The notes under the pieces: generated by a model | What the model saw: the letters and a program-made list of their open reading frames with translations, nothing else | Databases searched by the model: none | What the model was told of the DNA's origin: nothing | In this document: piece by piece, positions 9,191-63,892 of the stretch | How positions within the stretch are numbered: the stretch's first letter is position 1 | Layout: every line of letters starts with the position of its first letter | Position numbers and translations under genes: made by a program | Origin: a virus | Length of the DNA: 64,000 bases | Strand: one strand, 5' to 3' | Virus record (IMG/VR): IMGVR_UViG_3300045971_000895 | Span: 64,001 to 128,000 of that record

Positions 9191-9205
9191 GTTCCTTCCC
9201 CCGCT

Positions 9206-40478: not shown

Positions 40479-40509
40479 GGGGGCTGACCTCGTGTGGAAG
40501 TCAGCCCCC
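40479..40509. terminator. stem-loop (10-bp stem) between the hypothetical gene and the helicase gene
   Basis: GGGGGCTGAC-ctcgtgtggaa-GTCAGCCCCC. Confidence 0.35.
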
Positions 40510-40537
40510 TTATGCCACCTTCGAATGTGGATTCGAA

Positions 40538-45902: not shown

Positions 45903-46048
45903 GACACCTCCTGGTTTTGGGGTAACTACGCAACGTCAGACGCCTTATCCCACCGACTCAAAGAGAGTTTCCTTGTCATAGAAGGGCCCCAACGCCTACA
46001 CTCGGACCACGGACGAGTCCCTCTCCGCGTGCCTTAAGGAGCCCGACG
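45903..46048. promoter_or_regulatory. divergent intergenic region (lower GC) between the - and + blocks
   Basis: 146 nt without ORFs. Candidate TTGTCA-N18-TACACT element on the + strand. Confidence 0.35.
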
Positions 46049-48061: not shown

Positions 48062-48972
48062 CCCCTGAGGAGCGACTCACGGACCTGCTGGCTGGCGCCA
48101 AGCCGACGGCGCCGGTGGAAGGGCCCGCGCGGAGTGCGGAGCCAGAGGCCTCGAGCCCGGTCACCATCCGCACGCTCTTCTTCCACCAGGACGTCCACCC
48201 GGTGGTCCTCGACTTTGCCCTGCTCCGCACCTTCGGGGTGGCGTGGCACGGCTGGGAAGCCGAGACCATCTGGGCGGAGATCCACCGGGCCTTCAAGTCC
48301 CAGATCTCAGAGATCGTCCGGGCCAAGGTGATGGCGGTGAAGACCTGCCACGTCTCCACCGGTCCTTGGGAGAGCTGGCAAGTCTTCGAGAAGGTCATCC
48401 AGGTCCTCAACAACAACCTGCCTCGCTGGGACTTGATGCAGGCTCCGGGCCTCGAGCAGCTGTATGCCGGAATCGACATCATGGACACGCTGGACAAGCG
48501 GGGCTTCTCCGACGAGGTGAAGCTCTACATCGCCGCGGCGTGCCACAACGAGGACGTCCTCTTCGCTCCTGCCCCTCTCGACTTCGTGCAGGTCGAGGTG
48601 AGTCAGCCCCACTACGTCTGCCAGGACTGTGGCAACGAGGACTCGGCGCTCTTCCACGACGGCATCTGCGACACCTGCACGGAGAAGTGGACCGGAGGGA
48701 CGATGGGTGGCCGTCCCGACACGCAGTTGCTGGCCCAGGGCAAGGGCCACAACCTGAAGACCGTGCTGCGCTTCGACCCCGACTCGACTCAGAAGCTCTG
48801 GGATACGGTGAAGGGCAAGAAGACGGCGGACGTGGCTGACTCGCTCGACGAGACTCCAGAGGGTACTCAGGTCGCCAAGCTTCTCATGGCCCGTGACTAC
48901 CTCAATGTCAGGAGAAGGCAACTCGCCGATCAACTGACTTCCTTGAAGACATGGCTCGGGAGCAACGGATGA
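48058..48972 (+). CDS. hypothetical protein (304 aa) whose last ~20 codons are atypically coded and duplicated downstream
   Basis: C-terminal ...ARDYLNVRRRQLADQLTSLKTWLGSNG uses rare codons (AGG AGA CAA TTG ACA ACT). Confidence 0.45.
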   Translation: MTPEERLTDLLAGAKPTAPVEGPARSAEPEASSPVTIRTLFFHQDVHPVVLDFALLRTFGVAWHGWEAETIWAEIHRAFKSQISEIVRAKVMAVKTCHVSTGPWESWQVFEKVIQVLNNNLPRWDLMQAPGLEQLYAGIDIMDTLDKRGFSDEVKLYIAAACHNEDVLFAPAPLDFVQVEVSQPHYVCQDCGNEDSALFHDGICDTCTEKWTGGTMGGRPDTQLLAQGKGHNLKTVLRFDPDSTQKLWDTVKGKKTADVADSLDETPEGTQVAKLLMARDYLNVRRRQLADQLTSLKTWLGSNG

Positions 48973-49463
48973 CCGAGCGCACATGCACAAGGAAGGGGTG
49001 TCTTGGAAAGCACCGGGCCAAGGGCCTGTGTGCCAAGCACTACTTGAAGGTCTACAACCGGAAGAACAAGGCGAAGATCTCGAAGCAGGTCAGGGCCTAC
49101 TACGAAAGCAACGTCACCGACATCAAGGCGTACTCGAAGAGGTGGCAGGGCGAGACCTTGGATGGGCGCTGGAGCCACTTCAAGGCCCAGGCGAAGGCAC
49201 GCAAGCAGAAGATGCTGCTCACCAAGGAAGAGTTCGCAGACATCACCACCAAGCGGTGTTCCTACTGCGGCGACTTCTCCAAGGACAAGATCTGCGTTGG
49301 GGTCGATCGCATCGACAGTGCTCAGGGCTACCACGCTGGCAACGTCGTTCCGTGCTGCGAGATGTGCAACCTCATGAAGCGCCACTACGATGTGGACGCA
49401 TGGGTTGCCCACCTCAAGAAGGTCATCTCCTTCATCCACAGCGGCGGGAAGGTGACGGCATGA
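48951..49463 (+). CDS. HNH homing endonuclease
   Basis: CSYCGDFSKDKICVGVDRIDSAQGYHAGNVVPCCEMCNLMK matches the HNH motif. Estimated lower GC than neighbours. Its start overlaps the end of the upstream gene. Confidence 0.7.
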   Translation: MAREQRMTERTCTRKGCLGKHRAKGLCAKHYLKVYNRKNKAKISKQVRAYYESNVTDIKAYSKRWQGETLDGRWSHFKAQAKARKQKMLLTKEEFADITTKRCSYCGDFSKDKICVGVDRIDSAQGYHAGNVVPCCEMCNLMKRHYDVDAWVAHLKKVISFIHSGGKVTA

Positions 49464-49540: not shown

Positions 49541-50070
49541 AGATCGCCTCCATGGTGAAGTACACGGAGAAGGGCAAGCTGGTGAAGAAGGCCCAGTACG
49601 CCGGCTTCGCCGATGAGTTGGAGAAGATCTCTGCCGGCTTCCTGGCCAATGTCGGGACCAAGATCGTCCAGACTGGGCGCAACGCTGCTCAGTGGGCCAA
49701 GGCCCAGCCGGCTGCAACAGGTGCCGCATTCAAGGACCATCTCCAACCCATGGCGATGATGAAGGACAGTTGGAACAAGTCCAAGTGGTGGGGCATGAAG
49801 GGGCTGACGGTTGCTGGTGCAGGGATGGAAGGGGCCTCCGCGCTCAAGAAGAAGGACCCCGAGGGGCGCGGGCGCGGTAGAGGTCAGCGCCTCGGCAGCG
49901 CCATCGCTGGCACGGCCTCTGGCCTCATCACCATGAAGCATGGGATCATTCCAGCTCTGGCTACCGGGCTCGCCGCAAGCTACGCTGGCGGGAAGGTCGG
50001 GAAGCGGTTCGACAAGATGAAGAGCCACGCGCCGGGCGCTGTGCAGGCCCCACCGCCTGAAAGCACTTGA
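49537..50070 (+). CDS. small protein with FADELEKI motif (paralogue B)
   Basis: 177 aa. Shares the motif with the 47633 gene. Gly/Ala-rich. Confidence 0.4.
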   Translation: MKIASMVKYTEKGKLVKKAQYAGFADELEKISAGFLANVGTKIVQTGRNAAQWAKAQPAATGAAFKDHLQPMAMMKDSWNKSKWWGMKGLTVAGAGMEGASALKKKDPEGRGRGRGQRLGSAIAGTASGLITMKHGIIPALATGLAASYAGGKVGKRFDKMKSHAPGAVQAPPPEST

Positions 50071-52130
50071 TGGCCTACGACAACCTCAGCCTCGGCTTCG
50101 GTGGAACCTCCCGCTTCAGCGGGCAGCGCGGCCGCACGGCCGATGGCATGGGGCGCAGCGGCGTCCGCTACCCGTCGCCCTTCTTCGACCTCGGCCAGAC
50201 CTACCTGCCGCCGGACCAGAAGAAGCTGCTGCACTGGTGCCGCTTCTACTACCTGACGAACCCGCTCATCAACTCGGTCGTGCACAAGATGGCGGAGTAC
50301 CCCATCACCGAGATCATCATCGACGAGAAGGACCAGCAGGTGAAGGAGAAGTGGGAGGAGATGCTGGGCAGCCACCTGCGCTACCGGCCCTTCCAGATCG
50401 AAGTGGGGATCGACTACTTCGCCTACGGCATCTGCATCACCACCATCCACTTCCCCTTCACGAAGTGGCTCCAGTGCCGCCACTGCAAGCACAAGGTGCA
50501 GGCCAAGAAGACCGTCTACAAGTGGCGCAACCTGGACTACATCATCCAGTGCGACAAGTGCGGGACGACGGCGCCGGCGAAGGTGCAGGACTTCTACGAG
50601 AAGGACCTGCGCCGCATCCGCCTCATGCGGTGGAATCCGGAGTACGTCCACGTCGACCCTGGCTTCGCTGGCACGGACCCCATCTACACCTTCGAGCTCC
50701 CGCTCCAGGTCCGCAACGACCTGCTGCTCGGCAAGAAGACCCTGCTCGACACCATCCCCGACGTCTTCGTCGAGGCGCTCCGGCGCAACAAGTTCGTCCG
50801 CTTCGCCGACGAGAACATCTTCGTCTTCAAGCGCCCCATCATCAGCCAGAAGGACAACGGCTGGGGGATGCCGCTCATCTTCCCCGTCCTCAAGGACACC
50901 TTCTACCTCCAGGTGCTGCGCAAGGCGCAGGAGGCCATCGCGCAGGAGCACATCGTCCCGCTGCGCATCCTCTTCCCGCAGGCCGGGTCCAACACCTCCG
51001 ACCCCTACACCACGATCAACCTCGACTCCTGGAAGAGCCGGGTCGAGGGCGAGATCGCGAAGTGGAAGTACGACAACAACTACATCCCCATCCTGCCCCT
51101 GCCCATTGGCAACGAGACCATCGGCGGCGACGGGAAGGCGCTCATGCTGCACCAGGAGATGCAGGCCTGGTCCGACCAGATCGTGGCCGGTATGGGCGTG
51201 CCGCGGGAGTTCGTCTTCGGCGGCCTCCAGTACAGCGGCTCCAACGTCTCCATGCGGATGCTGGAGAACTCCTTCATCGGCTACCGCGTCGACCACGAGA
51301 ACATGCTCAACAACTTCGTGATCCGGCGCATCGCCAACTACATGGGCTGGAAGCCCGTGCGCGCCCACATGAAGCGCTTCAAGATGGCGGACGACCTCCA
51401 GCGCACCGCCTTCCTCTTCCAGCTCAACCAGGCCCAGAAGATCTCCGACGTCACCCTGCTCCAGGAGGCTGACCAGGATCCAGCGGTCGAGGAGCAGAGG
51501 AAGAACATCGAGATGGACCGCCAGCTCGAGTACCAGCGCAAGATGACAATCGCGCAGGCTCAGGTGCAGGCAGAGGCTCAGGCCATCCAGATGAAGGCCC
51601 AGGCCGAGGTGCAGCAGGAGATGATGGCCAAGGGGATGGCGATGCCCGGTGCAGAGGGTGCAGCCGGCGGGCAGCCTGGCGCTCCTGGGGGCCAGCCCGG
51701 GGCACAGCCGGGTGCCGAGGGTGGGCAGCCTGGCCAGCAGGGCGAGATGATGGGCGGGGAGCAGGCGGCTCCCGGGATGCCGGAGAACGCCACAGTCTCC
51801 CCCGAAAACGCCCAGCAGGCCCCGACCGAGGGCGTCCCGCAGGAGATGCAGAGCCCCATCACGCAGGGCCAGACGGGTGGCGGGATGAACCTCCTCTACC
51901 TCGCTCGCCGTGCCGTGATCGCGATCCAGGAGACGGAGAAGCAGGACCCCTCCGGCGCGAAGAAGAGCCTCGCGCTCCAGACGATGAAGATGTCCAACCC
52001 CCAGCTCTACTCGCTCGTCATCCGGATGCTCCAGAGCGAACAGGGTTCCCAGGCCAAGCCGCTCGATCCCGTGCAGAGCCCGCTGCCGCAGCAGAAGCCC
52101 GAGAGGCGGCAGTCTCCGGTCGGCGTCTAG
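50067..52130 (+). CDS. portal-like protein (687 aa) with embedded zinc ribbon and Gly/Gln/Pro-rich C-terminal region
   Basis: Size and position suggest a portal. CRHCKHK...CDKCG ribbon. QPGAPGGQPGAQPG repeats at 51650-51800. The assignment is tentative. Confidence 0.35.
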   Translation: MMAYDNLSLGFGGTSRFSGQRGRTADGMGRSGVRYPSPFFDLGQTYLPPDQKKLLHWCRFYYLTNPLINSVVHKMAEYPITEIIIDEKDQQVKEKWEEMLGSHLRYRPFQIEVGIDYFAYGICITTIHFPFTKWLQCRHCKHKVQAKKTVYKWRNLDYIIQCDKCGTTAPAKVQDFYEKDLRRIRLMRWNPEYVHVDPGFAGTDPIYTFELPLQVRNDLLLGKKTLLDTIPDVFVEALRRNKFVRFADENIFVFKRPIISQKDNGWGMPLIFPVLKDTFYLQVLRKAQEAIAQEHIVPLRILFPQAGSNTSDPYTTINLDSWKSRVEGEIAKWKYDNNYIPILPLPIGNETIGGDGKALMLHQEMQAWSDQIVAGMGVPREFVFGGLQYSGSNVSMRMLENSFIGYRVDHENMLNNFVIRRIANYMGWKPVRAHMKRFKMADDLQRTAFLFQLNQAQKISDVTLLQEADQDPAVEEQRKNIEMDRQLEYQRKMTIAQAQVQAEAQAIQMKAQAEVQQEMMAKGMAMPGAEGAAGGQPGAPGGQPGAQPGAEGGQPGQQGEMMGGEQAAPGMPENATVSPENAQQAPTEGVPQEMQSPITQGQTGGGMNLLYLARRAVIAIQETEKQDPSGAKKSLALQTMKMSNPQLYSLVIRMLQSEQGSQAKPLDPVQSPLPQQKPERRQSPVGV

Positions 52131-52139: not shown

Positions 52140-52619
52140 GTGTCCAAGGCCGAAGTGTTCTACGCCAGGGAGAGGTCCCTGTCAGAAGGGGACCTCCCTG
52201 TCTGGGACTACGTCGTCGAGCAGGGGGACGGGTTGGTCGTACTGGCCGGCTACTGTGCGGGCTGGGACGAGTACACCCTCGACGAGCTCAACAAGAAGCA
52301 CGGGAAGTACTACGGCAAGAGCCTCTTCGATCAGCAGGAGTCGCGTCGGAAGTGGCAGCAGAAGTACCACCTCGATGGGCACTCGACGAGGGAGTACGCG
52401 CAGCTCTGCCACCGAGAGTACCGCCTTGACCAGGAGCTCTCGATCACTCCACTCAAGGCCTCCCGGCCTTGTGAGGTGTGCTTGGAGCCGGCCACCTTCT
52501 TGGTCGAGTTCGTGGGAGGGCAGCCTCAGTTCCATCTCTGCGCTGACCACGCGACTCGTGAGTGCGTCGATCTGCTCCTCCCCTCGGAGGTTGCCCCGCA
52601 GCGCATTGTCTTCTACTGA
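52140..52619 (+). CDS. hypothetical Cys/His-containing protein (159 aa)
   Basis: GTG start with RBS GAGGTAGGG. Confidence 0.4.
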   Translation: MSKAEVFYARERSLSEGDLPVWDYVVEQGDGLVVLAGYCAGWDEYTLDELNKKHGKYYGKSLFDQQESRRKWQQKYHLDGHSTREYAQLCHREYRLDQELSITPLKASRPCEVCLEPATFLVEFVGGQPQFHLCADHATRECVDLLLPSEVAPQRIVFY

Positions 52620-52649
52620 AGGCTAAGAGAAGAGCCTCCGACTCCTCTC

Positions 52650-52868
52650 TCACTTCGGTTCCTGCGGGAAGCAGGGGAGCAGATCCATCAAGTCGTCGTA
52701 GAGGCTTGCTGACTGGTCGCGAAGGCGGGTGAGTCGAGCTACCAAGGCCGGAGGCGCTCCTTGGTAGCTCGCTCGTTGGACGAGGTCGTTGAGGACCTTC
52801 ACTTGGTCCTTCATGTAGTCGCCCTGGTCGATGATGTCTTCCTTCCAGATCTGGTCGCCGAGGCTCAT
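52650..52868 (-). CDS. hypothetical protein (72 aa)
   Basis: GC3 bias. Confidence 0.35.
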   Translation of the reverse strand: MSLGDQIWKEDIIDQGDYMKDQVKVLNDLVQRASYQGAPPALVARLTRLRDQSASLYDDLMDLLPCFPQEPK

Positions 52869-53353
52869 GCGCTAGGATCCTCTAGTCGCTGCTTGAGCCT
52901 GGCCTCCTCCTGTTTCTCTTCCTCCATCTCTTCCAGGGACTCCTGGGCCATCTCCATCGCCAGCTGGCTGATGGTCTCGTACCACTCGTCGGGGCAGTAG
53001 GTCTCCGCGTACCACTCGACCATGCAGCGCCCTTCATGGAAGCGGAAGGTGTTCATCTCATCGGCGCACCGAGGATCATCGACGACGGCGGCTAGCCCCG
53101 TCTGCTGGTTGATTCCGCTCATCCCGATGTAGAGCTCGACCGCCTGCTCTTCCGGCATGATGACTCCGCCGCAGTGGTCACACTCCAGCTGCTCGACAGC
53201 AGGCTGGCGGGACAGCTCGGGCCGTGGGGGAGGGTGGCACGGCGCCGGCGGTGGCGGAAGGTAAGCAGAAGGCGGGTAGTACGGTGCTGGGGCAGAAGGC
53301 AGGGGTGCTGGTTGTCCTGCTGCCCTTGGGTAGAACGGCGGAGGGTTAGCCAT
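52865..53353 (-). CDS. protein with Pro-rich N-terminus and acidic C-terminus (162 aa)
   Basis: PPFYPRAAGQPAPLPSAPAPYYPP... then a CDHCGG motif. Confidence 0.4.
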   Translation of the reverse strand: MANPPPFYPRAAGQPAPLPSAPAPYYPPSAYLPPPPAPCHPPPRPELSRQPAVEQLECDHCGGVIMPEEQAVELYIGMSGINQQTGLAAVVDDPRCADEMNTFRFHEGRCMVEWYAETYCPDEWYETISQLAMEMAQESLEEMEEEKQEEARLKQRLEDPSA

Positions 53354-53404
53354 GTGCCTCCGCGAGTAGGGCAGGGAACCAGACCCTGCGACTCGGCTTG
53401 CTCA

Positions 53405-53890
53405 TCAGCGTGCTCTCCGTAGAACGAGTTGAAGGAGTGAGGAGCCTCGACCACAAGACATGCAGCCAGGGAGCAGGCGCTTGTCTGGGTCGTAGTCCTC
53501 GTCACCTGGGTCCAGAGACGGGTCTCGGCCAGCGTGGTAGAAGCCTGCGATGTTGCGCTCCACTTTGGGGTTGTCCTTCTCGTGCCTCCAGGACTCATTG
53601 AGGCAGATGAAGCACTCCCAGCTGGGGGTCCAACCTTTGCTTTCCTCTCCAGCGATCCACTGCTGAAGGAGCTCACAGCTCAAGCAATCGAAGGCCTGTC
53701 CGCACAGCATTTCTTGGAAGACTCGATGCTCTTCGAGGTACAGCGGGTTGCCTTCTGCATCCACCTCCACCTGTTCGTTCTCCTGGAGGAGTGCACGACC
53801 TCCCACGATAGGAAGACCGAGCGCTGTGAACTGCCCTCCATTGGAACGGAAGTAGAGAGGGCAGGCCGCTGTCTTGGTGGGGTGGTCCAT
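53405..53890 (-). CDS. Cys-rich protein (161 aa)
   Basis: Multiple C..C pairs (CGQAFDCLSC, CFIC, CMSC). Confidence 0.4.
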   Translation of the reverse strand: MDHPTKTAACPLYFRSNGGQFTALGLPIVGGRALLQENEQVEVDAEGNPLYLEEHRVFQEMLCGQAFDCLSCELLQQWIAGEESKGWTPSWECFICLNESWRHEKDNPKVERNIAGFYHAGRDPSLDPGDEDYDPDKRLLPGCMSCGRGSSLLQLVLRRAR

Positions 53891-53891
53891 A

Positions 53892-54002
53892 CTAGGCCGG
53901 GATGCCCAGCCTCGAGGCGATGAGGTTCAGGATCGCCTGCGTGACGCGCTGGATGAGCATGCTGAAGATTCGGCCGAAGAACGTAAACACGAAGAGACGC
54001 AT
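53892..54002 (-). CDS. 36-aa hydrophobic peptide (MRLFVFTFFGRIFSMLIQRVTQAILNLIASRLGIPA)
   Basis: RBS AAGAGGA 9 nt upstream. Not in the ORF track. Confidence 0.3.
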   Translation of the reverse strand: MRLFVFTFFGRIFSMLIQRVTQAILNLIASRLGIPA

Positions 54003-54312
54003 GAGGAAGAATCCTCTTCAGATACGGGGTTGGGTGTGGGTTGCTTGGGGGGAAACATCTTGCCGAGAAGTGCGTCCTGCTTCTCGTCTTCCCACAACGA
54101 CGACTGCGTCGGAAGCATCGCACCTCCTTTCGGGCGTGAGAGACTAACATCTACTCCGACAACTCCTTATCCCTAGAGTTCTGGGCATTTCGTTTGACGT
54201 ATCGAACGCTTGGCCGCTATCCTCGAAGCAACTAGAGGCCGCGAAGACCTCGCATGCGTCGAGGTAGCGTACTCTGGAGCTACGTCAGCTCCCTTTCGCG
54301 AAGGGCAGACCC
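54003..54312. promoter_or_regulatory. ~300-nt ORF-poor leader/divergent promoter region upstream of the RNAP gene
   Basis: Lower GC. Short hairpins (ACCTCG-catgcgt-CGAGGT, GGAGCT-acgtc-AGCTCC). Candidate TTGACG-N17-CTATCC element. Confidence 0.3.
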
Positions 54313-57300
54313 TTGGACGAGAACATCCAGCCTGAGCAGGCCTTCGAGTCGCTCAAGAAGAACACGCTCGAAGCCATCAAGTCCTACTTCCCAGACGGCA
54401 AGTACGCTGGCAGGAAGCAAAGCATCCACCTCACCAACCTGCGCGTCGAGGACAACCTCAAGTCCGACGACGTCTCTTCGCAGACCGAGGTGAAGGACAA
54501 GGACGGAACCTGGGGCGTCCCCATCAAGGCCGACATGAAGCTCGTGGACAACACCACGGGCAAGGTGATCGACGAGACGAAGGGCTCCATCCTCGCCCGG
54601 CTCCCCAAGCTGACCAACCGCTACAGCTACATCGTCAACGGCAGCGAGTACCAGGTCGACCACCTGTTCCGCCTGAAGAGCGGCATCTACGCCCGGGTGC
54701 AGGACAACGGTGAGCTCGAGTCGGAGTTCAACCTGGCGAAGGGTGGTCGCCCCTTCTCGGTCCACCTCGACCCCGTGAAGCGCAAGCTGTCGATGAAGTA
54801 CGGCAACTCCCACATCCCGCTCTACCCGATCATGAAGAGCCTCGGGGTGGCGGACGACGACATCGAGAAGAGCTGGGGCAAGGCACTCTTCGAGGCCAAC
54901 AAGCCGAAGACCGACGAGAAGTTCAATGGCTCTCTCGCCAAGCTCGTGAAGCTGGTCTCCGAGGAGCCTGTACCTGCTGACCTCTCCCCCGACGACCTGC
55001 ACAAGCACGTCAACTCCTTCTTCAACCAGCTCTCCGTCCGCCCCGACACCACGAAGCTCACGCTCGGGGAAGCGCACGAGGCGGTGACCGGGAAGACCCT
55101 GCTCCAGGCGGCGCACAAGCTGCTCGGTGTCTCTCGCGGCACGCACCAGCCCGACGACCGCGACAGCCTCGCCTTCAAGGAGACTGCCAGCATCGAGGAC
55201 TTCATCCCCGAGAAGATCCTCCGCGCCGGCGCGCGTACCATCCGGCCCAGGCTTCGCCAGACCATCGACCAGAAGCAGTCGGTCCGAGACATCGTCGCCT
55301 CCAACCTCTTCGGCCGCCCGGTGGGCGAGTTCTTCACGAAGGGCGGCTCGGTGGCGGAACGGTCCGAGCAGACCAACCCCATCCAGATGCTCTCAGCCCA
55401 CCGCAAGACCACGCTCATGTCGCGGGACTTCGGCGGCATCAAGAGCGAGAACTCCCTCACCGAGGGGATGCAGACCATCAACCAGAGCCACTTCGGCTTC
55501 CTGGACCCGATGCACACGCCGGAAGGCGAGAAGATCGGCATCACCCTCCACCTCGCTTCCCACGTCCGGAAGAACGGGAAGGACCTCGAGATCCCCGTCT
55601 TCGACACTCACACAGGGAAGTCCACCTGGGTGAACGCCGTCGACTTCCACGGGGCAGATGCCGTGCTCCCGGACCAGGTGACCTGGGTCGACGGCAAGCC
55701 CAAGCCCATCTCCGCCACGGTCCGCACCAAGACCTCTGGCGGCGACATCGTCAACAAGCCCTTCAAGGACTCGCGCTACGTCATGCCCTCCACCAAGGGC
55801 ATGTGGAACTACGCCTCCAACCTCGTCCCCTTCCTGTCGGCCGACAACGGCAACCGCATCATGATGGCCGACAAGCAGATGGAGCAGGCCATCGGCCTGA
55901 AGCACCGAGAGGTGCCGCTGGTTCAGTCGAAGACGGACCATGGCGATCCCGAGCACACCTTCGAGAAGCTCTTGGGGCACTTCATCGCCTCCCGTGCGCC
56001 CGCCGCGGGGAAGGTCTCGTCCATCAAGGGAGACGTCGTTCACATCGCTGGAGACGACGGCAAGAAGCATGAGGTCCACCTCTACAACAACTTCCCCCTG
56101 AACGATGCGAAGGGGATGCTGCACTCGGACCTGACCGTGAAGGTCGGCGACAAGGTTCGCAAGGGCCAGGTGGTAGCCGACAACAACTTCACCAAGGACG
56201 GCAGCCTCGCCATCGGTACCAACCTGCGGGTCGGCTACATCCCGTACAAGGGCTACAACTTCGAGGACGGCATCGTCATCTCGGAGAGCGCGGCGAAGAA
56301 ACTGACCTCCGAGCACCTGCACAAGAAGATCGTCGAGATCGACCCCGACAACGACCACATCGGCAAGGCGAAGTACCAGGCGTGGGCCATCTCGGAGTCG
56401 CAGGCCATGCCCAAGGCGTACCTCGACGCCCTCGAGGACAACGGCGTCGTGAAGGTCGGCACCAAGGTGAAGCCAGGCCAGGTGCTCGTCGCCGCCATCG
56501 GGAAGAACGACACCAAGAAGGCGTCGCTCATGTCGGCCTACGGCAACAAGCGCGCCTTCAAGCCGGTGAAGAACAAGTCGATGGTCTGGGACGAGGACCA
56601 CGAGGGAACCGTCACCAAGGTGGTGCACGACCCGCAGGGCCGCGGCGTGCGCGTCTACGTCCGCACCGACGAGCCCGTCGTCATCGGCGACAAGCTCACC
56701 GGCCGGCACGGCAACAAGGGCATCGTCTCGCTGATCCTGCCTGACCACGAGATGCCCTTCACGAAGAACGCCAAGGGGGAGCGGGAGTCGCTGCACGTCC
56801 TCCTCAATCCGTCAGGCATCCCCTCCCGCATCAACCCCGGCCAGATGCTGGAGACTGCCGCAGGGAAGATCGCCGAGAAGACGGGCAAGCCCTACATCGT
56901 CGACAACTTCGGTGACGCCCACTCCGACCACCGCACCAAGCTGGAGAAGGAGCTGAAGGCTCACGGGATCACGGACGAGGAGACTGTCTACGACCCGAGC
57001 GATACTCGCCGCGCCCTCGGCTCCGTGCTGGTCGGTCCTCAGTACGTCCTGAAGCTGAAGCACCAGGTGGAGAAGAAGGTCTCGGCTCGAGGCGGAGGGA
57101 CGGACGTCAACGGGCGGAAGCTCGCCGTCGACACCGACCAGCAGCCGGTGAAGGGCGGCGAGCACGGCGGTCAGGGCTTCGGCGCTCTCGAGATGTACTC
57201 GCTGCTCGGCCACAACGCCCGGCACAACATCCGGGAGATGTCGACCTACAAGAGCGACAACCAGGACATGCTCTTCTGGAACATGATCCAGAACGGGCAC

Positions 57301-60300
57301 GAGCCGCCGCCCCCCACTGTCCCCTTCAGCTACCGGAAGTTCGAGGGCCTGCTCCGTGGGCTTGGCGTCAACGTGACGAAGGACGGGACCTCCGTCCGCA
57401 TCCATCCCATCACCAACAAGGAAGTCCTGCGCCTCACCGGGAACCGGGAACTGAAGGACGCAGCGAAGACCCTCCGCTCCAAGGACCTGAAGCCTGTCCC
57501 GGGCGGCCTCTTCGATGAGCAGCTCACCGGTGGCCTCGACGGCGACAAGTGGTCCCACATCAAGCTCGACGAGCCGGTACCCAACCCCATCTTCTGTGGC
57601 GGCGGCAACCAGCCCGGACCTGTGCCTGTTCTCCTCGGCCTCAAGATGAAGGAGTTCGAGGACGTCATGGCGGGGAAGCACTCGATCGGAGGGCTGACCG
57701 GTGGCGCAGCCGTCGAGGCGGCCCTCAAGAAGGTCGACGTCCACAAGGAAGTCGACGCCTTGAAGAGAGCCCTGCCAGGGCTGCGCGCCGACGAGCTGGA
57801 CCGGGCCAACAAGAAGCTCAAGTACCTGCTCGCGCTGAAGGACTTGGACCTCAAGCCCCACGACGCCTACATGATGCACTACGTTCCGGTGGTGCCTCCG
57901 AAGTTCCGTCCGGCCTCGGCCACCCCCTCGGGCGACGTGAACTACTCCCCGCTCAACGGGCACTACAAGAACATCAGCCTCATCAACGAGCACCTCCGCA
58001 ACTTCGACTCGGCCCACTTCGACGACAAGCACAAGCAGCCGCTCCGCACCCAGCTCTGGGACGCCATGAAGGCGCTCCAGGCGGTGGGCACTCATCGAGA
58101 GGTCTACGACACGGACCAGAGCGGCGACCGAGCCCTGAAGGGCATCCTCGACATCATCGGCGGCAAGCCAGGAGTGGAGCAGCCGAAGGAGGGCTACTTC
58201 CAGTCGAAGCTGGTGAAGCGCCGGCAGAACCTCTCTGTCCGCTCGACCATCGTCCCTGAACCGAAGTTGGGCATCGACGAGGTCGGTCTCCCCAAGGGCG
58301 CGGCGATGGAGATGTACAAGCCCTACGTCGTGGCCCAGCTCCAGAAGTGGAACTTCCACCCGCTGGCGGCGCAGGACGAGATCAAGAAGATGACCCCCAT
58401 CGCCTTCCGCGCGCTGGAGAAGGTCGTGGTGGATCGTCCTCTGCTCTTGAAGCGTGATCCGGTGCTGCACAAGTTCGGAGTCATGGCCTTCAAGCCGAAG
58501 CTGGTGGAGGGCAAGGCCATCCAGATCCACCCGCTGGTCTGCGGTGGCTTCAACGCCGACTTCGACGGAGACACGATGGCCGGCACCATCCCCATGTCCA
58601 GAGAGGCCGTGGAGGAAGCGAAGAAGCTCTTCCCTTCCAACAACCTCTTCAGCCCCACCAACTACGGGGCGATGTACCTGCCGGCCAACGAGGCCCTGCT
58701 GGGGCTCCACCTCCTCTCGAAGTGGGGCAAGAAGACAGGCAAGACGTTCGCCAACACGACCGAACTCAACAAGGCCGTGGACGAAGGCCATGCAGATGTC
58801 ACGGACGTCGTCCACCTGAAGGGCATGAAGGAGCCCACCACGCTGGGCCGGCTACTCCTCGAGTCGCGCCTCCCTCGTGGCTACTCCCAGAACTCGAAGG
58901 TCCTCCACAACAGCGAGTTCGAGTTCTCGAAGAGAGAGCTGAAGAAGATGGCCCCGGAGATCGCCAACAAGCACCGGGACCACTACGCCAACACCGTCGA
59001 CTCCCTGAAGAACCTCGGCAACGAGTGGTCCTACAAGCTGGGCTTCTCCATCGGCCTCAAGGATCTGAAGACCATCCCCCAGCGTGACGCCATCATCGGC
59101 AGGGCCGAGAAGAAGGTGCATGAGCTGTCGAGCAAGGGAGAGGCCCACGACGCCGACGTCATCCGCATCTACCAGGGAGCCACGGGAGAGATCGAGGAAG
59201 CCCAGAAACTCCTACACGGCGGGCCGACGCAGGGAGACCACCGCCTTGCCCAGATGGTCTTCTCCGGTGCTCGAGGTGATGCTTCCCAGCTTCGCCAGAT
59301 GATCGCAGCCCCCATGCTGGTGGAGAGTTCCTCCGGCAAGGTGGTGCCCTACCCGCTCAAGCGCTCCTTCGCAGAGGGTCTCGACATCGGGGACTTCTGG
59401 ATGTACCAGCACGGCGCCCGCAAGGGCATGATCCAGAAGGGCCGCGGCACAGCAGACCCTGGCGCCATCACCAAGGACATCATCAACGCCTCCATGTCGA
59501 CCCTCATCGTCTCTCCGGACTGCGGGACGAAGGAAGGTGTTCACATGAAGGTCAACGACGAGGACATCCACGACCGCTACTTGGCGGCTCCCTACAAGCT
59601 GAAGGACGGCACCCACATCAAGGCTGGAGAACTTCTCACGCCTGCCGTGCTCTCTCGGCTCAAGAACTCGAAGATCGAGACGGTCTCCGTCCGCAGCGCG
59701 TTGAAGTGCGCTCACGGAGATGGGATGTGCGCGAAGTGCTTCGGCCTGAATGAGTCCGGAGTTCTCCACAGCAACGGGACCAACATCGGCATCCTGGCCA
59801 GCCAGGCCATGGGAGAGCCGTCGACCCAGCTCTCGATGCGGGCCTTCCACACGGGCGGCGTCGCCGGGTCAGCGGCCGGCAAGTCGATGGACGCCATCAC
59901 CCGTCTCCGCAACCTCCTCGAGATGCCGAAGCGGATCCGGGATGAGGCCACGGTGTCGATGGCGACCGGCAAGGTCAGCGCGGTCCGCAAGGACCCAGCC
60001 GGCGGCGCCGACATCATCGTCACCAGCTACCACAACGACCAGCCGGTGGAGACGAAGCACTACATCCCCCGGCACCTCATCAACGAGGACATCAAGGTGG
60101 GGTCGCAGGTGAAGAGGGGCGACAAGCTCTCTGGTGGGTTCGTCAACCCGCACCGGCTCCTCGAGTCGACGAAGAGCATCCACGCCGTGCAGAACTACCT
60201 GACCGATGAACTCCACGATGGGCTGTTCAAGGGGCTCGGGGTGCGACGCAGGAACATCGAGGTGGCGGTTCGCAACATCACCAACCTGACCAAGGTGAAG

Positions 60301-60624
60301 GACCCGGGCCACTCGGAGTGGCTGCCAGGGGACATCCTTCCTCGCTCCGTGGTCGAGGAGCACAACAGGACGAAGGGGGAGAAGGAAGCCCCCGTCATCC
60401 ACGAGCCGGTGCTCAAGGGCGTCGGAGAGATCCCTCGCAACATCACCACCGACTGGATGGCCAGGCTCAACTACCAGAACCTCCACTCGACGGTTCGTGG
60501 TGCGGCCGCCATGGCCCAGAAGTCCAACATTCACGGGAGCCATCCCATCCCCGGGCTGGCGTATGGTGCGGAGTTTGGTAGGCCACCCGCTGACCTGAAG
60601 TCCAAGAAGCCGCACGTGTACTAG
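54313..60624 (+). CDS. single-polypeptide multisubunit-type RNA polymerase, fused beta and beta-prime (2103 aa)
   Basis: Beta blocks: PMHTPEGEKIGITLHLA, LTGRHGNKGIVS, GGEHGGQGFGALEMYSL. Beta-prime blocks: catalytic NADFDGD, bridge-helix-like GARKGMIQKGRGTADPGAITKD, trigger-loop-like AMGEPSTQLSMRAFHTGGVAG. TTG start at 54313. Confidence 0.8.
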   Translation: MDENIQPEQAFESLKKNTLEAIKSYFPDGKYAGRKQSIHLTNLRVEDNLKSDDVSSQTEVKDKDGTWGVPIKADMKLVDNTTGKVIDETKGSILARLPKLTNRYSYIVNGSEYQVDHLFRLKSGIYARVQDNGELESEFNLAKGGRPFSVHLDPVKRKLSMKYGNSHIPLYPIMKSLGVADDDIEKSWGKALFEANKPKTDEKFNGSLAKLVKLVSEEPVPADLSPDDLHKHVNSFFNQLSVRPDTTKLTLGEAHEAVTGKTLLQAAHKLLGVSRGTHQPDDRDSLAFKETASIEDFIPEKILRAGARTIRPRLRQTIDQKQSVRDIVASNLFGRPVGEFFTKGGSVAERSEQTNPIQMLSAHRKTTLMSRDFGGIKSENSLTEGMQTINQSHFGFLDPMHTPEGEKIGITLHLASHVRKNGKDLEIPVFDTHTGKSTWVNAVDFHGADAVLPDQVTWVDGKPKPISATVRTKTSGGDIVNKPFKDSRYVMPSTKGMWNYASNLVPFLSADNGNRIMMADKQMEQAIGLKHREVPLVQSKTDHGDPEHTFEKLLGHFIASRAPAAGKVSSIKGDVVHIAGDDGKKHEVHLYNNFPLNDAKGMLHSDLTVKVGDKVRKGQVVADNNFTKDGSLAIGTNLRVGYIPYKGYNFEDGIVISESAAKKLTSEHLHKKIVEIDPDNDHIGKAKYQAWAISESQAMPKAYLDALEDNGVVKVGTKVKPGQVLVAAIGKNDTKKASLMSAYGNKRAFKPVKNKSMVWDEDHEGTVTKVVHDPQGRGVRVYVRTDEPVVIGDKLTGRHGNKGIVSLILPDHEMPFTKNAKGERESLHVLLNPSGIPSRINPGQMLETAAGKIAEKTGKPYIVDNFGDAHSDHRTKLEKELKAHGITDEETVYDPSDTRRALGSVLVGPQYVLKLKHQVEKKVSARGGGTDVNGRKLAVDTDQQPVKGGEHGGQGFGALEMYSLLGHNARHNIREMSTYKSDNQDMLFWNMIQNGHEPPPPTVPFSYRKFEGLLRGLGVNVTKDGTSVRIHPITNKEVLRLTGNRELKDAAKTLRSKDLKPVPGGLFDEQLTGGLDGDKWSHIKLDEPVPNPIFCGGGNQPGPVPVLLGLKMKEFEDVMAGKHSIGGLTGGAAVEAALKKVDVHKEVDALKRALPGLRADELDRANKKLKYLLALKDLDLKPHDAYMMHYVPVVPPKFRPASATPSGDVNYSPLNGHYKNISLINEHLRNFDSAHFDDKHKQPLRTQLWDAMKALQAVGTHREVYDTDQSGDRALKGILDIIGGKPGVEQPKEGYFQSKLVKRRQNLSVRSTIVPEPKLGIDEVGLPKGAAMEMYKPYVVAQLQKWNFHPLAAQDEIKKMTPIAFRALEKVVVDRPLLLKRDPVLHKFGVMAFKPKLVEGKAIQIHPLVCGGFNADFDGDTMAGTIPMSREAVEEAKKLFPSNNLFSPTNYGAMYLPANEALLGLHLLSKWGKKTGKTFANTTELNKAVDEGHADVTDVVHLKGMKEPTTLGRLLLESRLPRGYSQNSKVLHNSEFEFSKRELKKMAPEIANKHRDHYANTVDSLKNLGNEWSYKLGFSIGLKDLKTIPQRDAIIGRAEKKVHELSSKGEAHDADVIRIYQGATGEIEEAQKLLHGGPTQGDHRLAQMVFSGARGDASQLRQMIAAPMLVESSSGKVVPYPLKRSFAEGLDIGDFWMYQHGARKGMIQKGRGTADPGAITKDIINASMSTLIVSPDCGTKEGVHMKVNDEDIHDRYLAAPYKLKDGTHIKAGELLTPAVLSRLKNSKIETVSVRSALKCAHGDGMCAKCFGLNESGVLHSNGTNIGILASQAMGEPSTQLSMRAFHTGGVAGSAAGKSMDAITRLRNLLEMPKRIRDEATVSMATGKVSAVRKDPAGGADIIVTSYHNDQPVETKHYIPRHLINEDIKVGSQVKRGDKLSGGFVNPHRLLESTKSIHAVQNYLTDELHDGLFKGLGVRRRNIEVAVRNITNLTKVKDPGHSEWLPGDILPRSVVEEHNRTKGEKEAPVIHEPVLKGVGEIPRNITTDWMARLNYQNLHSTVRGAAAMAQKSNIHGSHPIPGLAYGAEFGRPPADLKSKKPHVY

Positions 60625-60626
60625 CC

Positions 60627-61712
60627 ATGTCACTCTTCCGCCGGCAGCTCGATGCAGCCACCGTACAGCGGGCGCGCGTGCTCGACGTGAACGTTACCAA
60701 CTACACCCTCGTGGTGCAGACGGAGCTGACGCAGAAGACGCTGGCTTGGGTCTCTTGGTCATCCCCCTACATGCACCCCCACAACGGCGAGGGGGTCTAC
60801 TGCATGCCCGAGGTGGGGTCCCTCTGCTGGCTCATGGAGCCGTCGGATGGTGGGATGCCTTTCGTGGTGGGCTGGACGTCCCTGCCTGGGAAGGACCGCA
60901 GCCACCGCAACCGACGACTCGACCTCAACCCGGGGGACATCTACCTCGGTACCCGAGACGAGAACCACATCCTCCTGCGCCGCGGCGGTGTGGTAGAGAT
61001 CGGGGCCACGCCTCTGGCCCAGCGTCTCTTCCTCCCGATCAACAACATGATCAAGGACCTCTGTGCCAACTACTCCCTCCAGACGTTGGGCGGAGAGCTG
61101 AAGTGGACGGTCGGCATCCCGGAGGACAACTCCTACGGGGACAAGCAGACGACCTTCACCATCAACGCCAAGGAGAAGGCCACGGATGCCGAACATGTGG
61201 CCACGGTCCAAATCGGTTCCCACAAGGGTGACGATGCCACTATCCTGAGTCTGGTTCTCCGTGCGTCAGGAGAGAAGGGCGCAGTCGCCAATCTCACGGT
61301 CACGGGGAAGAAGTCCGGAGACTTGGACCTGACATCCAAGGGCGCCATCACCTGGAAGGTGACGGGAGATGTGAAGGTGGATGCTCAGAACATCACGCTC
61401 ACCGCCAAGCAGAAGGCGTCTCTCGTCGGCACGCTGGTCGCCGAGATGACGGGCGGTCTCGTGAACATCATCTCCAAGACCGGGGCTGTGGCTGTTGCGG
61501 CCGCCGGCGGGATGGTGGTCTCAACGTCTGGGCCCGGCCCGGCTCTCGTTGTAGGGGCCGGTACTCCAGAGCCGGTGATGCTGGGGACCTCGGACCTCAT
61601 CAAGTGGCTCACGACGCATGTGCACATCCAGAATCCGCCCGGTAGCATCACCACCGGCACGCCGCCTGAGCCCCCGCCCGCCAAGGCAGCCAAGAACCTG
61701 AAGGCATCGTAG
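60627..61712 (+). CDS. baseplate central spike, gpV/VgrG/gp5-like (OB-fold plus beta-helix)
   Basis: N-terminal YCMPEVGSLCWLMEPSDGGMPFVVGW resembles the gpV OB domain. C-terminal repeats KVTGDVKVDAQNITLTAKQKASLVG. Confidence 0.45.
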   Translation: MSLFRRQLDAATVQRARVLDVNVTNYTLVVQTELTQKTLAWVSWSSPYMHPHNGEGVYCMPEVGSLCWLMEPSDGGMPFVVGWTSLPGKDRSHRNRRLDLNPGDIYLGTRDENHILLRRGGVVEIGATPLAQRLFLPINNMIKDLCANYSLQTLGGELKWTVGIPEDNSYGDKQTTFTINAKEKATDAEHVATVQIGSHKGDDATILSLVLRASGEKGAVANLTVTGKKSGDLDLTSKGAITWKVTGDVKVDAQNITLTAKQKASLVGTLVAEMTGGLVNIISKTGAVAVAAAGGMVVSTSGPGPALVVGAGTPEPVMLGTSDLIKWLTTHVHIQNPPGSITTGTPPEPPPAKAAKNLKAS

Positions 61713-61723: not shown

Positions 61724-63892
61724 ATGGACCTGTATCTCGACCAGACCCCGGAGAAGAAGGAAGAGGGCCACGAGAAGACGTCGGCCTTCGCCGCACGCCT
61801 CTCGGAGTCCGCGGAGAACTGGCCGCAGGAGTTGACGAGCGAGCTCTTCAAGCAGCTCCCGTACCTCTCCGACTACGACCTGAACGTGAACCTCGACCGC
61901 GCCGATCCTACGCGCGGCTTCGCCTTCGGATACGCTGACGTGTCGAGCCGCACCGAGCGCCCTGACATCGAGCACGGCGACATGGGCATCCCACACCTCC
62001 GCATCCCGGTCATCGGGATCGAGCGCCAGGTGAAGCCCTTCTCGGTCTTCCTCGACGGCGACAGCGTCTTCCCGCTGACCGAGGAGCGGGTCCGCGAGAC
62101 CCTCTTCAATCCCTCGACCTTCGACCTCTCGGCGACGGTGCCCCGCGATCCCAGCCTCATCGAGCCGCTCATGCCCCCGCAGCGCTCCAGCATGGGCCAG
62201 GGCGGTGAGACGAAGATGGCGTCGGCGCGAAGCCTGCTGCACGCCATCGCCCCCACCATCTCCGAGCGGGATGCCACAGCCTTCATCGAGAAGGTCGCCA
62301 CCGACGCCACCATCCGTTCCGGCTTCAAGCGTTCCGGCGTGGTTGGGGACCTGGTCGAGATCTTCGACAAGACCAAGCGCGCCTCCGCCAACGACCGCTT
62401 CGCCTACATCGCCGAGCAGATCCAGCCGACGGTGGTCACCCTCCAGAAGCTCCCCGGTGGGGAGTTCCTGGTGAAGCACGCCAACGTCGGGGCGGTGAAT
62501 CCCGTCACCCTGCGCGGCGAAGCCGTGCCGGGCGAGGAGGCCGCCGAGGCCATCGGCCCAGATGCCGCGCAGGCCATGGTGCCTGGGCAGACGGCGACCA
62601 TGACGGCGGAGCCCATCGAGCTCGAGGAAGCCTTCGAGCAGGTGGCGAAGCCCGTCGAGTCCTTCGGCGAGTACAAGGTCATGGACACCATGGAGAACCA
62701 GCTCATGGGCTGGGTCTTCCCCTTCACCCTCGCCTGGGACGGCAACTTCACCAAGCAGCCGCTGGCCCTCTTCACCAACGGCTCCGCCTACGCGCTCCAG
62801 GACTCCATCGTGGGCGACATGGTGGGCAAGAGCACCAACCTGCCGGGCGAGTCCAAGCCGGTGGGTGAGGGCGTTCTCTTCACCACGCAGGGTGGCAACG
62901 CCATCTGCACCCAGCCCATCACCATCCGCTCGGCCATGTCCGGCCCCGACGGCTCCCCGACGCTGGTCGCCCTCGACATGATGGGCCAGCACCTCCAGAT
63001 CTCCTTCACGGACGGCCTCTCCCAACCGCAGCGCATCAGCGATGTGGAGTACGCCTTCCCGAAGACCTGGAACTTCATGCGCCTGAACAACCAGACCCAG
63101 CTCCAGGGCGGTGGCCAGGACATGGGCGAGGACCCGGCGATGCAGGAGGGCCAGGGTGGCCAGAGCGACGGCGCTCCCAAGCCTCCGGCCAAGAAGCCGG
63201 CTGCCGGCAAGCCCGGGGAGAAGAAGCCGGGTGGCGAGAAGAAGCCCGAGAAGAAGGAGGGCAAGCCGGCCGAGAAGAAGGAGAAGCCCACCGTGCAGGT
63301 GAACGTGGGCGAGGCGGCCAAGAAGGAGAAGACCTCTGCTACCCTCTTCTACAACGGCGCCTTCCAGCTGGTGGGCGGCTGCGGCCTCGACAAGCTGGCC
63401 ACGGAGTTCCGCCATGATCTTTCCCCGGTTGATGCTGAATGCATGCTTGGTCTTCTTGGAGTTGATGGCCTCGTCGCGAAGAAGAAGGTCGCGGAAGCAC
63501 GTCGTACTGGCTCTGTGAAGATGGCAGGGCTGAAGACCATCACCACCCTCGGCGAGCGGTACCAGGGCGCCACCAAGACCGCGGCCGCGCTGATGGCCGA
63601 CATCCCGAACCTTCGGGTCGACCTCATCAAGGAGGCGGCGGAGCTTCAGGACCAGAGCTCGGTCAACAACGTGCTGGCCCTGAACTTCATCAACCCGGAG
63701 AACCTGTCGACCTTCATCGACTACATCCCGGAGCTGGCGCAGACCAGCGAGAAGCTCTCCGAGATGCTACTCTTCTCCTACCTCGGCATGAACGAGCTGC
63801 CCGAAGGGCCGATGGAGCGCAGCATCAAGAACATCGAGAACGTCATCTCCGGCCTGAAGAGCGTGGCGGAGACGGGCCCCCGAGAGGACTGA
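61724..63892 (+). CDS. hypothetical virion protein (722 aa) with Lys/Pro/Glu-rich linker
   Basis: GC3 bias. KKPAAGKPGEKKPGGEKKPEKKEGKPAEKKEKP low-complexity segment. Confidence 0.45.
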   Translation: MDLYLDQTPEKKEEGHEKTSAFAARLSESAENWPQELTSELFKQLPYLSDYDLNVNLDRADPTRGFAFGYADVSSRTERPDIEHGDMGIPHLRIPVIGIERQVKPFSVFLDGDSVFPLTEERVRETLFNPSTFDLSATVPRDPSLIEPLMPPQRSSMGQGGETKMASARSLLHAIAPTISERDATAFIEKVATDATIRSGFKRSGVVGDLVEIFDKTKRASANDRFAYIAEQIQPTVVTLQKLPGGEFLVKHANVGAVNPVTLRGEAVPGEEAAEAIGPDAAQAMVPGQTATMTAEPIELEEAFEQVAKPVESFGEYKVMDTMENQLMGWVFPFTLAWDGNFTKQPLALFTNGSAYALQDSIVGDMVGKSTNLPGESKPVGEGVLFTTQGGNAICTQPITIRSAMSGPDGSPTLVALDMMGQHLQISFTDGLSQPQRISDVEYAFPKTWNFMRLNNQTQLQGGGQDMGEDPAMQEGQGGQSDGAPKPPAKKPAAGKPGEKKPGGEKKPEKKEGKPAEKKEKPTVQVNVGEAAKKEKTSATLFYNGAFQLVGGCGLDKLATEFRHDLSPVDAECMLGLLGVDGLVAKKKVAEARRTGSVKMAGLKTITTLGERYQGATKTAAALMADIPNLRVDLIKEAAELQDQSSVNNVLALNFINPENLSTFIDYIPELAQTSEKLSEMLLFSYLGMNELPEGPMERSIKNIENVISGLKSVAETGPRED

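Follow-up and report, generated by a model that had tools for sequence, protein, structure and literature searches.

A fused beta-beta' RNA polymerase gene within a virion-gene module of a large tailed phage, preceded by a structured and probably regulatory 5' leader

Results

The RNA polymerase gene and its operon

In this study we describe a fused RNA polymerase (RNAP) gene of a virus, together with the genes that follow it and the DNA that precedes it. The stretch analysed, hereafter the window, comprises 64,000 nucleotides (nt) of IMG/VR record IMGVR_UViG_3300045971_000895 (positions 64,001 to 128,000), with a GC content of 63% and the character of a large tailed phage. The RNAP gene occupies 54313-60624 on the plus strand and encodes 2103 amino acids (aa) in an uninterrupted open reading frame (ORF) that starts at TTG 54313, ends with TAG 60622-60624 and has a third-position GC of 0.91. 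Its beta domains include Rpb2_6 (PF00562, 3.1e-61) and Rpb2_3 (PF04565, 3.7e-10), both past the Pfam cut-offs, and a weak Rpb2_7 (PF04560). C-terminal to them and in the same frame lies the beta' part with Rpb1_1, Rpb1_2 (PF00623, 5.9e-26), Rpb1_3 and Rpb1_5 (PF04998, 9.1e-23), and the translation contains the Mg-binding NADFDGD loop as GGFNADFDGDTMAG. Since Rpb2 domains, then Rpb1 domains and this loop are found in one ORF, we identify the gene as a beta-beta' fusion of the multisubunit type, as a first, sequence-only reading of this DNA had proposed. Upstream, the frame is shut by TAG 54265-54267; the sole start codon past it is TTG 54313, from which the N-terminus can be aligned with its relatives.

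By megablast, no near-identical DNA was found in known phages. With tblastn the RNAP is 29-32% identical to those of Vibrio phages D69, D181 and D148 and Salmonella phage Arash, and full-length fused homologues of 34-95% identity occur in well over 100 contigs from IMG/VR, JGI metagenomes and GTDB bins of metagenome-assembled genomes. The enzyme is a new member of a known, barely characterised phage clade, that of Arash and very probably of mReC. Neither a second RNAP nor a sigma factor was found among the scanned ORFs of the window, which belongs to a genome of about 198 kb, and the Arash annotation lists no RNAP besides gp206/gp216; a second, non-virion RNAP set as in phiKZ was therefore seen in neither. 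Related loci carry here the labels L001 (Vibrio phage D69), L002 (Arash) and onward, L236-L239 being the Arash genome. Several of them have an altered RNAP gene. In Arash and D69 it is split by inserted genes after the catalytic half of beta', and in D181 and D148 a homing endonuclease is annotated beneath the RNAP match. Also, the match spans 7-8.5 kb instead of 6.2 kb in several metagenomic loci (among L085, L089, L090, L165, L182, L217 and L226), a length that points to insertions, for instance of inteins, introns or endonuclease genes. Finally, in L026, L038 and L061 the RNAP N-terminus (MARLSPEEGF...) is repeated in a short ORF about 100 nt before the true start; this ORF may be a remnant duplication or the footprint of a mobile insertion.

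Between the RNAP stop codon and the ATG at 60627 there is only 'CC', the 2-nt gap that the sequence-only reading had pointed out. This ATG opens a plus-strand gene (60627-61712) for a central baseplate spike of the gpV/gp5/VgrG type. It has no Shine-Dalgarno (SD) sequence of its own, and to judge from this arrangement it is probably translationally coupled to the RNAP gene. The spike protein matches Pfam Phage_base_V slightly below the cut-off (E 1.4e-4), several of its homologues carry PF04717, and its profile retrieves VgrG from the PDB at E 1e-3. An AlphaFold2 (AF2) model made with 37 homologues is all-beta, with a predicted local distance difference test (pLDDT) of 79, and Foldseek matches it with probability 1.0 to VgrG, AFP/PVC spikes, the R2 pyocin spike, P2 gpV, phi92 gp138 and Mu gp45, at template modelling (TM) scores that are low as a monomer of a trimeric helix was modelled. 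The predicted model displays the N-terminal OB-fold and beta-helical spike of gpV, gp5 and VgrG, and model and Foldseek matches together uphold the gpV/VgrG-like assignment made earlier. An exact copy of this protein is encoded on a 198-kb contig.

The third gene of the operon, at 61724-63892 on the plus strand, encodes a conserved 722-aa protein with homologues in more than 100 contigs at 50-95% identity. It has a variable linker rich in K, E, P and G, and its conservation exceeds that of the spike. No sequence match was obtained in Pfam, PHROG or the PDB, nor a fold match for its AF2 model (pLDDT 68). Its C-terminal ~60 residues align by hhalign with proteins encoded after the RNAP of Arash (gp218, E 0.006) and of D69 (E 0.012); these matches are weak, with probabilities of just 6.5% and 3.7% respectively. 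Arash gp218 is labelled a structural protein in the annotation. In the following 10 kb of a shorter contig, which also has a gene for this spike protein, we find a gene for endonuclease VII, three unknown genes, some leftward ones and a terminase of the GpA type.

The order of these genes was compared in 138 non-redundant loci. A spike homologue lies within 1 kb after the RNAP gene and on the same strand in 83 of the 117 loci with enough downstream DNA, and a portal homologue precedes the RNAP gene on the same strand in 37/44, so we regard the arrangement as a conserved module of the clade and not as a local accident. In the window, the portal-like gene (50067-52130, plus strand; phrog_2833 portal, E 7.6e-10) lies near the end of the head operon and is 30% identical by tblastn to the annotated portal gp204 of Arash. 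The RNAP gene therefore stands in, and is co-oriented with, a module of portal, spike and terminase genes, and in Arash too it shares the strand of the structural genes. The sequence-only reading had placed it between structural blocks, which is loosely true: the portal and head operon lie to the left and the spike gene, the 722-aa gene and, about 9 kb away, the terminase to the right, but 1.5 kb of small leftward genes separate the end of the head operon (52619) from the RNAP gene.

The intergenic region and its promoters

The region 54003-54312 had been read as a single ORF-free leader of about 300 nt, of lower GC and with small hairpins. Its GC is indeed lower (0.565 against 0.630 in the window), and small hairpins are found in the fold of 54230-54325. 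It is not ORF-free, however, because 54003-54118 is the 5' part of a conserved minus-strand gene, and it is not one leader, because some 116 nt of it code on the other strand and some 110 nt are promoter DNA. The true non-coding gap, 54119-54312, measures 194 nt and is flanked by divergent genes, which limits the RNAP leader to its right ~83 nt.

The leftward neighbour, which we call gene A (53927-54118, minus strand), is an ORF of 63 aa with its start at 54118, an AGGAGG SD sequence and a conserved product. The N-terminal motif (Q/S)xxx(M/L)(W/F)E(D/E)E(K/R)xxA(L/F)xG is common to the window, L003, L005, L007, L022, L190 and L071, and more diverged counterparts occur in L166, L165, L185, L160, L159 and L008; many relatives have an acidic tail. 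Gene B (53892-54002, minus strand) encodes the hydrophobic, single-pass membrane-like peptide MRLFVFTFFGRIFSMLIQRVTQAILNLIASRLGIPA of 36 aa. Of 15 relatives examined, most have conserved genes A and B, and in most a similar K/R-LF-hydrophobic peptide begins about 300-335 nt before the RNAP start. The window and L003 have the two ORFs overlapping, in different frames, over about 25 codons; in other relatives they abut.

Genes A and B are preceded by an 8-mer at 54166-54173, CTTATCCC on the plus strand and GGGATAAG on the minus strand, which we read as the -10-like element of their leftward promoter. The pattern CTTATN(C/T)C occurs on the RNAP-gene strand no more than 250 nt before the RNAP start in 55/75 non-redundant loci (background about 1 per 250-nt bin), and it is kept across contigs of very different GC content. 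The whole genome of Arash is informative on its orientation. There the strand of the structural genes carries 36 copies of the motif and the opposite strand 7, about 7 being expected on each; 29 of the 36 are found 15-90 nt before an opposite-strand start codon that has an SD sequence, as compared with 18% of random positions, and only 6/36 precede a gene of the same strand. On its functional strand the motif reads GGNATAAG, and the Arash consensus TGGTATAAG is an extended -10-like element with G at -7 that precedes tRNA, nucleotide-metabolism and replication genes. Among the relatives, 79/103 motifs before RNAP genes have an opposite-strand start codon with an SD sequence just to their left. 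The window holds four exact copies, all in the leftward orientation and none in the opposite one, and three of them (54166-54173, 45944-45951 and 40509-40516, minus strand) lie 42-60 nt before leftward starts, those of gene A (54118), of the first gene of the replication block (45902) and of DnaB (40449). When the window was scanned with a position weight matrix, the motif was not enriched relative to shuffles, so that only position and orientation are informative here. The strand bias in Arash and the neighbouring start codons thus indicate a leftward promoter of non-structural genes, whose constant presence beside the RNAP gene follows from the conserved divergent arrangement. In both Arash and the window, GGNATAAG precedes non-structural genes of the opposite strand; it may be a phage-specific promoter of early genes.

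To the right of this 8-mer by 20 nt lies TTGACG-18 nt-TATCCT (54194-54223, plus strand), the only promoter-like match in 52500-54500, with 9/12 positions as in the sigma70 consensus. Hexamers of this type are kept in relatives, where TTGnnn-N17/18-TAnnnT ends 6-16 nt before the first hairpin of the leader in 20/21 related leaders, and the spacing stays within the 16-18 nt usual for sigma70. The narrower pattern TTGNCN-N17/18-TANNNT occurs three times in the window, and both intergenic copies precede operons, namely the RNAP operon and the head operon (TTGTCA-18-TACACT at 45973, plus strand). Each lies 20-21 nt to the right of a leftward 8-mer. At the head operon, promoter type and spacing recur in L003 and L005, where the 8-mer copy is conserved as well. 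The RNAP and head/portal operons therefore share a predicted back-to-back promoter cassette, and this is the best sequence-level argument for assigning the RNAP operon to the structural (late) expression class. In many distant relatives (L087, L018, L088, L030 and others) the -10 hexamer ends 6-11 nt before the RNAP ATG, which has no SD sequence; their predicted RNAP mRNAs would be leaderless, as this spacing suggests, unlike those of the subclade with a structured leader.

The 5' leader

A transcript from about position 54230 would have a leader of ~83 nt, and the predicted minimum free energy (MFE) of 54230-54325 is -38.3 kcal/mol (z = -2.44). Hairpin 1 (54237-54272, plus strand) is made of an outer helix, an asymmetric purine-rich internal loop (5' GAAGA, 3' UA), an inner helix and an apical loop with GCG. 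It was aligned in 21 distinct relatives whose RNAPs, used to locate the start, are 41-95% identical over the N-terminal 150 residues, and architecture and place are common to all of them. In this alignment 83% of the cells are paired as compared with 70% after shuffling, the covariation score is 0.421 against 0.208 with 0/500 shuffles as high, 8/10 pairs show double changes, and slid registers collapse. RNAalifold independently predicts both helices. The covariance model of the hairpin, R1, scores 37.7 bits at its site and at most 13.7 elsewhere in the window, and in 2.3 Mb of related loci all matches with E <0.01 lie directly upstream of an RNAP start. No copy beyond RNAP leaders was found in the window or in these 2.3 Mb, nor any member past the 21 seeds. 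Rfam has no family at the gathering threshold in the window, and only chance-level matches at E up to 10 in 53900-54400.

Three positions of hairpin 1 do not vary in the 21 sequences, namely two internal-loop As, one at the end of the 5' side (54247 in the window) and one on the 3' side (54266), and the G next to the latter. The stems covary, and a GCGC-like core is retained in the apical loops. When the alignment is read against a kink-turn, the two stems, the 3-nt bulge and the R-A opposite K-A are recognised, with A at 2b and A at 1n in 21/21. At 1b most sequences have G, and L207, L007, L022, L190 and L157 have A; 2n is mostly U, as in Kt-23-type variants, and G in four or five sequences. 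In this sense the internal loop is kink-turn-like in sequence, agreeing with the consensus in part.

Hairpin 2 (54276-54292, plus strand; GGAGCU-ACGUC-AGCUCC) comes from the MFE fold. Relatives have a hairpin at the equivalent place with a loop complementary to that of hairpin 1, in sequences that vary from one relative to another: AUGCGUA/UACGCAU in L166, CUGCGG/CCGCAG in L165, CUGUGC/GCACAG in L207, GUGCA/UGCAC in L160 and UGGCG/CGCCA in L159. Own pairs of loops are complementary over a mean of 4.95 nt as against 4.40 nt for mismatched pairs (48/10000 permutations as high) and 3.92 +/- 0.20 nt in shuffles, and in 8/14 leaders the complementary segment falls within the MFE loop. Hairpin 2 could not be aligned by MAFFT/RNAalifold, so the case for contact between the loops rests on our own complementarity and permutation test, and we propose a kissing interaction of hairpins 1 and 2 only tentatively.

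Further along, the ribosome-binding region (54291-54315, plus strand) includes the SD sequence AAGGG at 54301-54305, the anti-SD sequence CCCUU on either side of it at 54291-54295 and 54310-54314, and the UUG start at 54313-54315. In the MFE structure AAGGG pairs with the CCCUU at 54310-54314, which overlaps the start codon. Starts other than ATG are found in 15/21 RNAP genes with the structured leader and in about 16/109 other members of the family. Many other relatives have short or apparently no leaders, hence the structured leader is an elaboration of one subclade. The 5' leader is probably a new cis-regulatory element.

Other features of the window

From left to right, the window contains baseplate and tail genes (Baseplate_J) with a C39 peptidase at 1-23.4 kb on the plus strand; replication genes (PolA, primase, DnaB, RecA-like, helicase, deoxynucleoside monophosphate kinase and RusA) at 23.9-45.9 kb on the minus strand; the head operon with the portal-like gene and an HNH endonuclease at 46.0-52.6 kb on the plus strand (start 46049); small genes at 52.65-54.12 kb on the minus strand; and the RNAP, spike and 722-aa genes from 54.3 kb on the plus strand. 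The small genes include, to the left of B, three leftward genes (52650-52868, 52865-53353 and 53405-53890, minus strand) recognised by ORF calls and third-position GC, with homologues at the equivalent place in L003, L005, L007, L022 and L071. No clear family was found for them, 52650-52868 giving a weak DUF3263 match.

The HNH/endonuclease VII-like gene inside the head operon (48951-49463) is missing there in the 95%-identical L003 and is likely a recent homing-endonuclease insertion. A second gene for endonuclease VII comes after the 722-aa gene on L240 (5412-5846), a contig that also codes for the spike protein of the window. The tightly packed rightward baseplate operon is interrupted by a gap of 296 nt (8911-9205), where a minus-strand ORF of 99 aa (8891-9190) has a coding-like third-position GC of 0.78. 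The C39-like cysteine protease (22722-23198, E 3e-18) ends the tail/baseplate block, an unusual place for such a peptidase.

Discussion

Virion RNAPs whose genes lie among structural genes are known from N4, phiKZ/AR9 and crAss-like phages. N4 gp50 and crAss-like gp66 are each one giant polypeptide with a gene placed among late or tail genes, and each is packaged and enters the host by ejection; gp50 belongs to the T7-like single-subunit enzymes and recognises DNA-hairpin promoters, and gp66 is too diverged for hidden Markov models (HMMs) of beta and beta'. The RNAP described here differs from gp66 in that it matches beta/beta' HMMs down to 1e-61. The phiKZ and AR9 enzymes share with it a multisubunit-type catalytic core. 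Their virion RNAPs are expressed late, packaged in the capsid and injected, and transcribe early genes from phage-specific promoters; they consist of 4-5 polypeptides, lack sigma homologues and coexist with a second, non-virion set (PMC7598289, PMC13282480). In contrast, the window encodes one chain of 2103 aa in a single set, and a cultured relative encodes RpoS/RpoD-like sigma factors. A further known system is mReC, a lineage of Caudovirales with a deep-branching multisubunit RNAP whose description covers metagenomic tailed phages, often of 100-300 kb and from many environments, with cell-type beta/beta' domains (Weinheimer and Aylward, 2020; PMC7481178). As our contigs are metagenomic tailed phages from IMG/VR with the same domain content, the clade of the window phage is very probably the mReC lineage. 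Term searches of the main text of that paper gave no mention of sigma factors or virion packaging, and gave 'fused' or 'fusion' only for crAssphage, whose RNAP fusion it mentions (PMC7481178).

The closest cultured relative is Arash, in which the homologous RNAP (32% identity) is encoded by gp206 and gp216, with beta fused to the N-terminal half of beta' (PMC10585845). Both phages encode a portal just upstream on the same strand, keep the RNAP on the structural-gene strand and use the GGNATAAG/TGGTATAAG motif. Arash differs in that the RNAP is split into two ORFs with ~4.8 kb of other genes between them, that a helicase and then a structural protein follow with no gpV-like gene directly after, and that the RNAP gene begins within the gene before it and thus has neither a leader nor hairpin 1 (no R1 match in L002). 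Mass spectrometry of Arash virions by liquid chromatography (LC-MS) gave the most spectra for gp206 (3516), above the major capsid protein, and 1210 for gp216, and the sigma factor gp10 was detected as well (PMC10585845). RNAP and sigma genes lie on the structural-gene strand of Arash, with the portal directly upstream of the RNAP. We found no later work on Arash-type virion RNAPs in the literature searched. By analogy with Arash, the RNAP is probably packaged in the virion of the window phage too.

Taking these observations together, we consider that the locus is best explained, with a probability of about 0.5, by a late, virion-class RNAP-spike operon with a folded regulatory leader, whose packaged RNAP would read the leftward promoters. 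The RNAP gene would be the first of a rightward operon with the spike gene, the 722-aa gene and further genes, set between the head/portal operon and the terminase. Transcription would begin at about 54230 from TTGACG-18-TATCCT, back-to-back with the leftward, phage-specific promoter GGGATAAG that would drive genes A and B, and since the same cassette precedes the head operon, the RNAP may be co-regulated with virion genes. The kink-turn-like hairpin, hairpin 2, the paired SD sequence and the UUG start would keep translation low, possibly with feedback by a bound protein. Re-initiation after the RNAP stop codon would then allow translation of the spike, tying together two low-copy virion components. 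Finally, RNAP with a sigma factor would be packaged, delivered with the DNA, and would transcribe the leftward genes with GGNATAAG promoters, a step to which the Arash proteome and the conservation of these promoters across hosts both point.

The sequence-only reading had offered two outcomes, a late-expressed, virion-packaged RNAP or a specially regulated transcript, and each gains indirect support. The former may be favoured by the conserved order of portal, RNAP and spike, by the promoter of the head type and by the Arash spectra, in which carry-over is possible. The latter may be favoured by a covarying hairpin confined to RNAP genes, a paired SD sequence and a UUG start. Several points weigh against the explanation that we prefer. 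The Arash virion preparation contained 116/272 proteins, including ribonucleotide reductase and ligases, and the authors themselves note a possible carry-over of enzymes, which may thus account for the detection of RNAP as well (PMC10585845). Since a single RNAP was found in the scanned ORFs and in the Arash annotation, it must have a role within the cell as well, and its expression need not be confined to late infection; moreover, host RNAP could transcribe from a good sigma70-type promoter as soon as the DNA has entered, and expression would then be early. The pattern TTGNCN-N17/18-TANNNT is not enriched over the window (3 copies as against ~5 expected by our own estimate), so the RNAP operon promoter counts by position and conservation only. 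As to the leader, G is missing at kink-turn position 1b in some relatives, the outer helix of hairpin 1 has just 3 bp in the window, and the window's own loop-loop complementarity is weak (3-4 bp).

Some of these points would be accommodated by an RNAP that is intracellular and not part of the virion, being made early or in mid-infection from a host-read sigma70 promoter and taking over middle and late transcription with phage sigma factors; its place beside virion genes would then be historical and its presence in Arash particles a contamination. The 9/12 consensus positions of the rightward promoter, the want of a second RNAP in the scanned ORFs or the Arash annotation, which obliges the enzyme to work in the cell, and the many metabolic enzymes listed in the Arash dataset all agree with it. 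We nonetheless hold it to be the weaker account, possible yet rather unlikely, since contamination fits poorly with a spectral count that is the highest in that dataset and exceeds that of the major capsid protein, and historical placement fits poorly with a same-strand position between portal and spike that is kept in relatives down to ~35% identity, and with a promoter cassette common to the head operon. Also, the retention of the leftward motif by phages of very different GC is easier to understand if a holoenzyme borne by the phage reads it. The rightward promoters may be read either by the host sigma70 holoenzyme or by the phage enzyme with a phage sigma. A different objection concerns the conserved 8-mer CTTATNCC itself, which might belong to the promoter of the RNAP gene, acting as an upstream activator site or a phage-specific -10. 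No other non-coding element near the RNAP gene is as conserved; in many relatives TTGC follows it at a constant 16 nt, in another group the RNAP ATG follows it at a constant 25-29 nt, and a second copy precedes the head operon. Against this, its distance to the rightward -35 varies between groups, the other copies in the window precede leftward replication genes, and the counts given above (29/36 against 6/36 in Arash; 79/103 before RNAP genes of relatives) associate it with genes of the opposite strand. Such a role seems to us improbable, and we rejected the 8-mer as an RNAP promoter or activator site after the scan of the whole Arash genome, as it faces the opposite way.

The leader too admits a simpler account, in which its hairpins are generic, a 5' stem-loop protecting the mRNA from 5'-end-dependent decay plus incidental GC-rich structure, with no ligand, protein or feedback. 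In each of the 21 leaders hairpin 1 begins no more than ~10 nt from the predicted 5' end, a position typical of stabilising stem-loops like the one of ompA; the window leader has a modest z-score (-2.44), and in many relatives the leader is short or absent. We regard this account as conceivable though less attractive, because a mere stabiliser needs no conserved loops, whereas here three unpaired or junction positions are invariant and the GCGC-like apical core persists while the stems covary. The co-varying complementarity of the two loops in L166, L165, L207, L160 and L159 and the association of weak start codons with the structured leader speak in the same direction. Translational operators of this kind are familiar from the autogenous control of rpoBC in E. 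coli, from gp43, gp32 and RegA of T4, and from L7Ae/L30e, which regulate their own mRNAs through kink-turns. As in those cases, the predicted RNAP leader is structured and lies next to or over the ribosome-binding site of a gene for a nucleic-acid enzyme; to the L7Ae/L30e element the internal loop of hairpin 1 bears the partial resemblance described above. To none of these operators does the leader show sequence or Rfam similarity. In the literature searched we found no description of the promoter cassette, of the clade-wide GGNATAAG motif or of a structured leader specific to RNAP.

With RNAPs delivered by the virion, phages can begin transcription independently of the host enzyme and escape host defences. 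The solutions known so far are the single-subunit enzyme of N4, the fragmented multisubunit enzymes of phiKZ/AR9 without sigma, and the highly diverged enzyme of crAss. If our explanation is true, a single-chain beta-beta' enzyme of the cell type that works with sigma-like factors and is apparently packaged would constitute a fourth solution, spread over well over a hundred environmental phage contigs. We would further suggest, as a speculative extension, that the leader is a new class of structured cis-regulatory RNA, in which the apical loop of the kink-turn-like hairpin kisses the second hairpin beside the ribosome-binding site, and that it gates synthesis of a virion-bound polymerase, perhaps autogenously via RNAP or sigma; GGNATAAG would then be the early-promoter code that the injected single-chain holoenzyme reads throughout the phage clade. 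The candidate early promoter word GGNATAAG, the divergent promoter cassette of the RNAP and head operons and the covarying element of the polymerase mRNA may offer handles on the biology of these phages.

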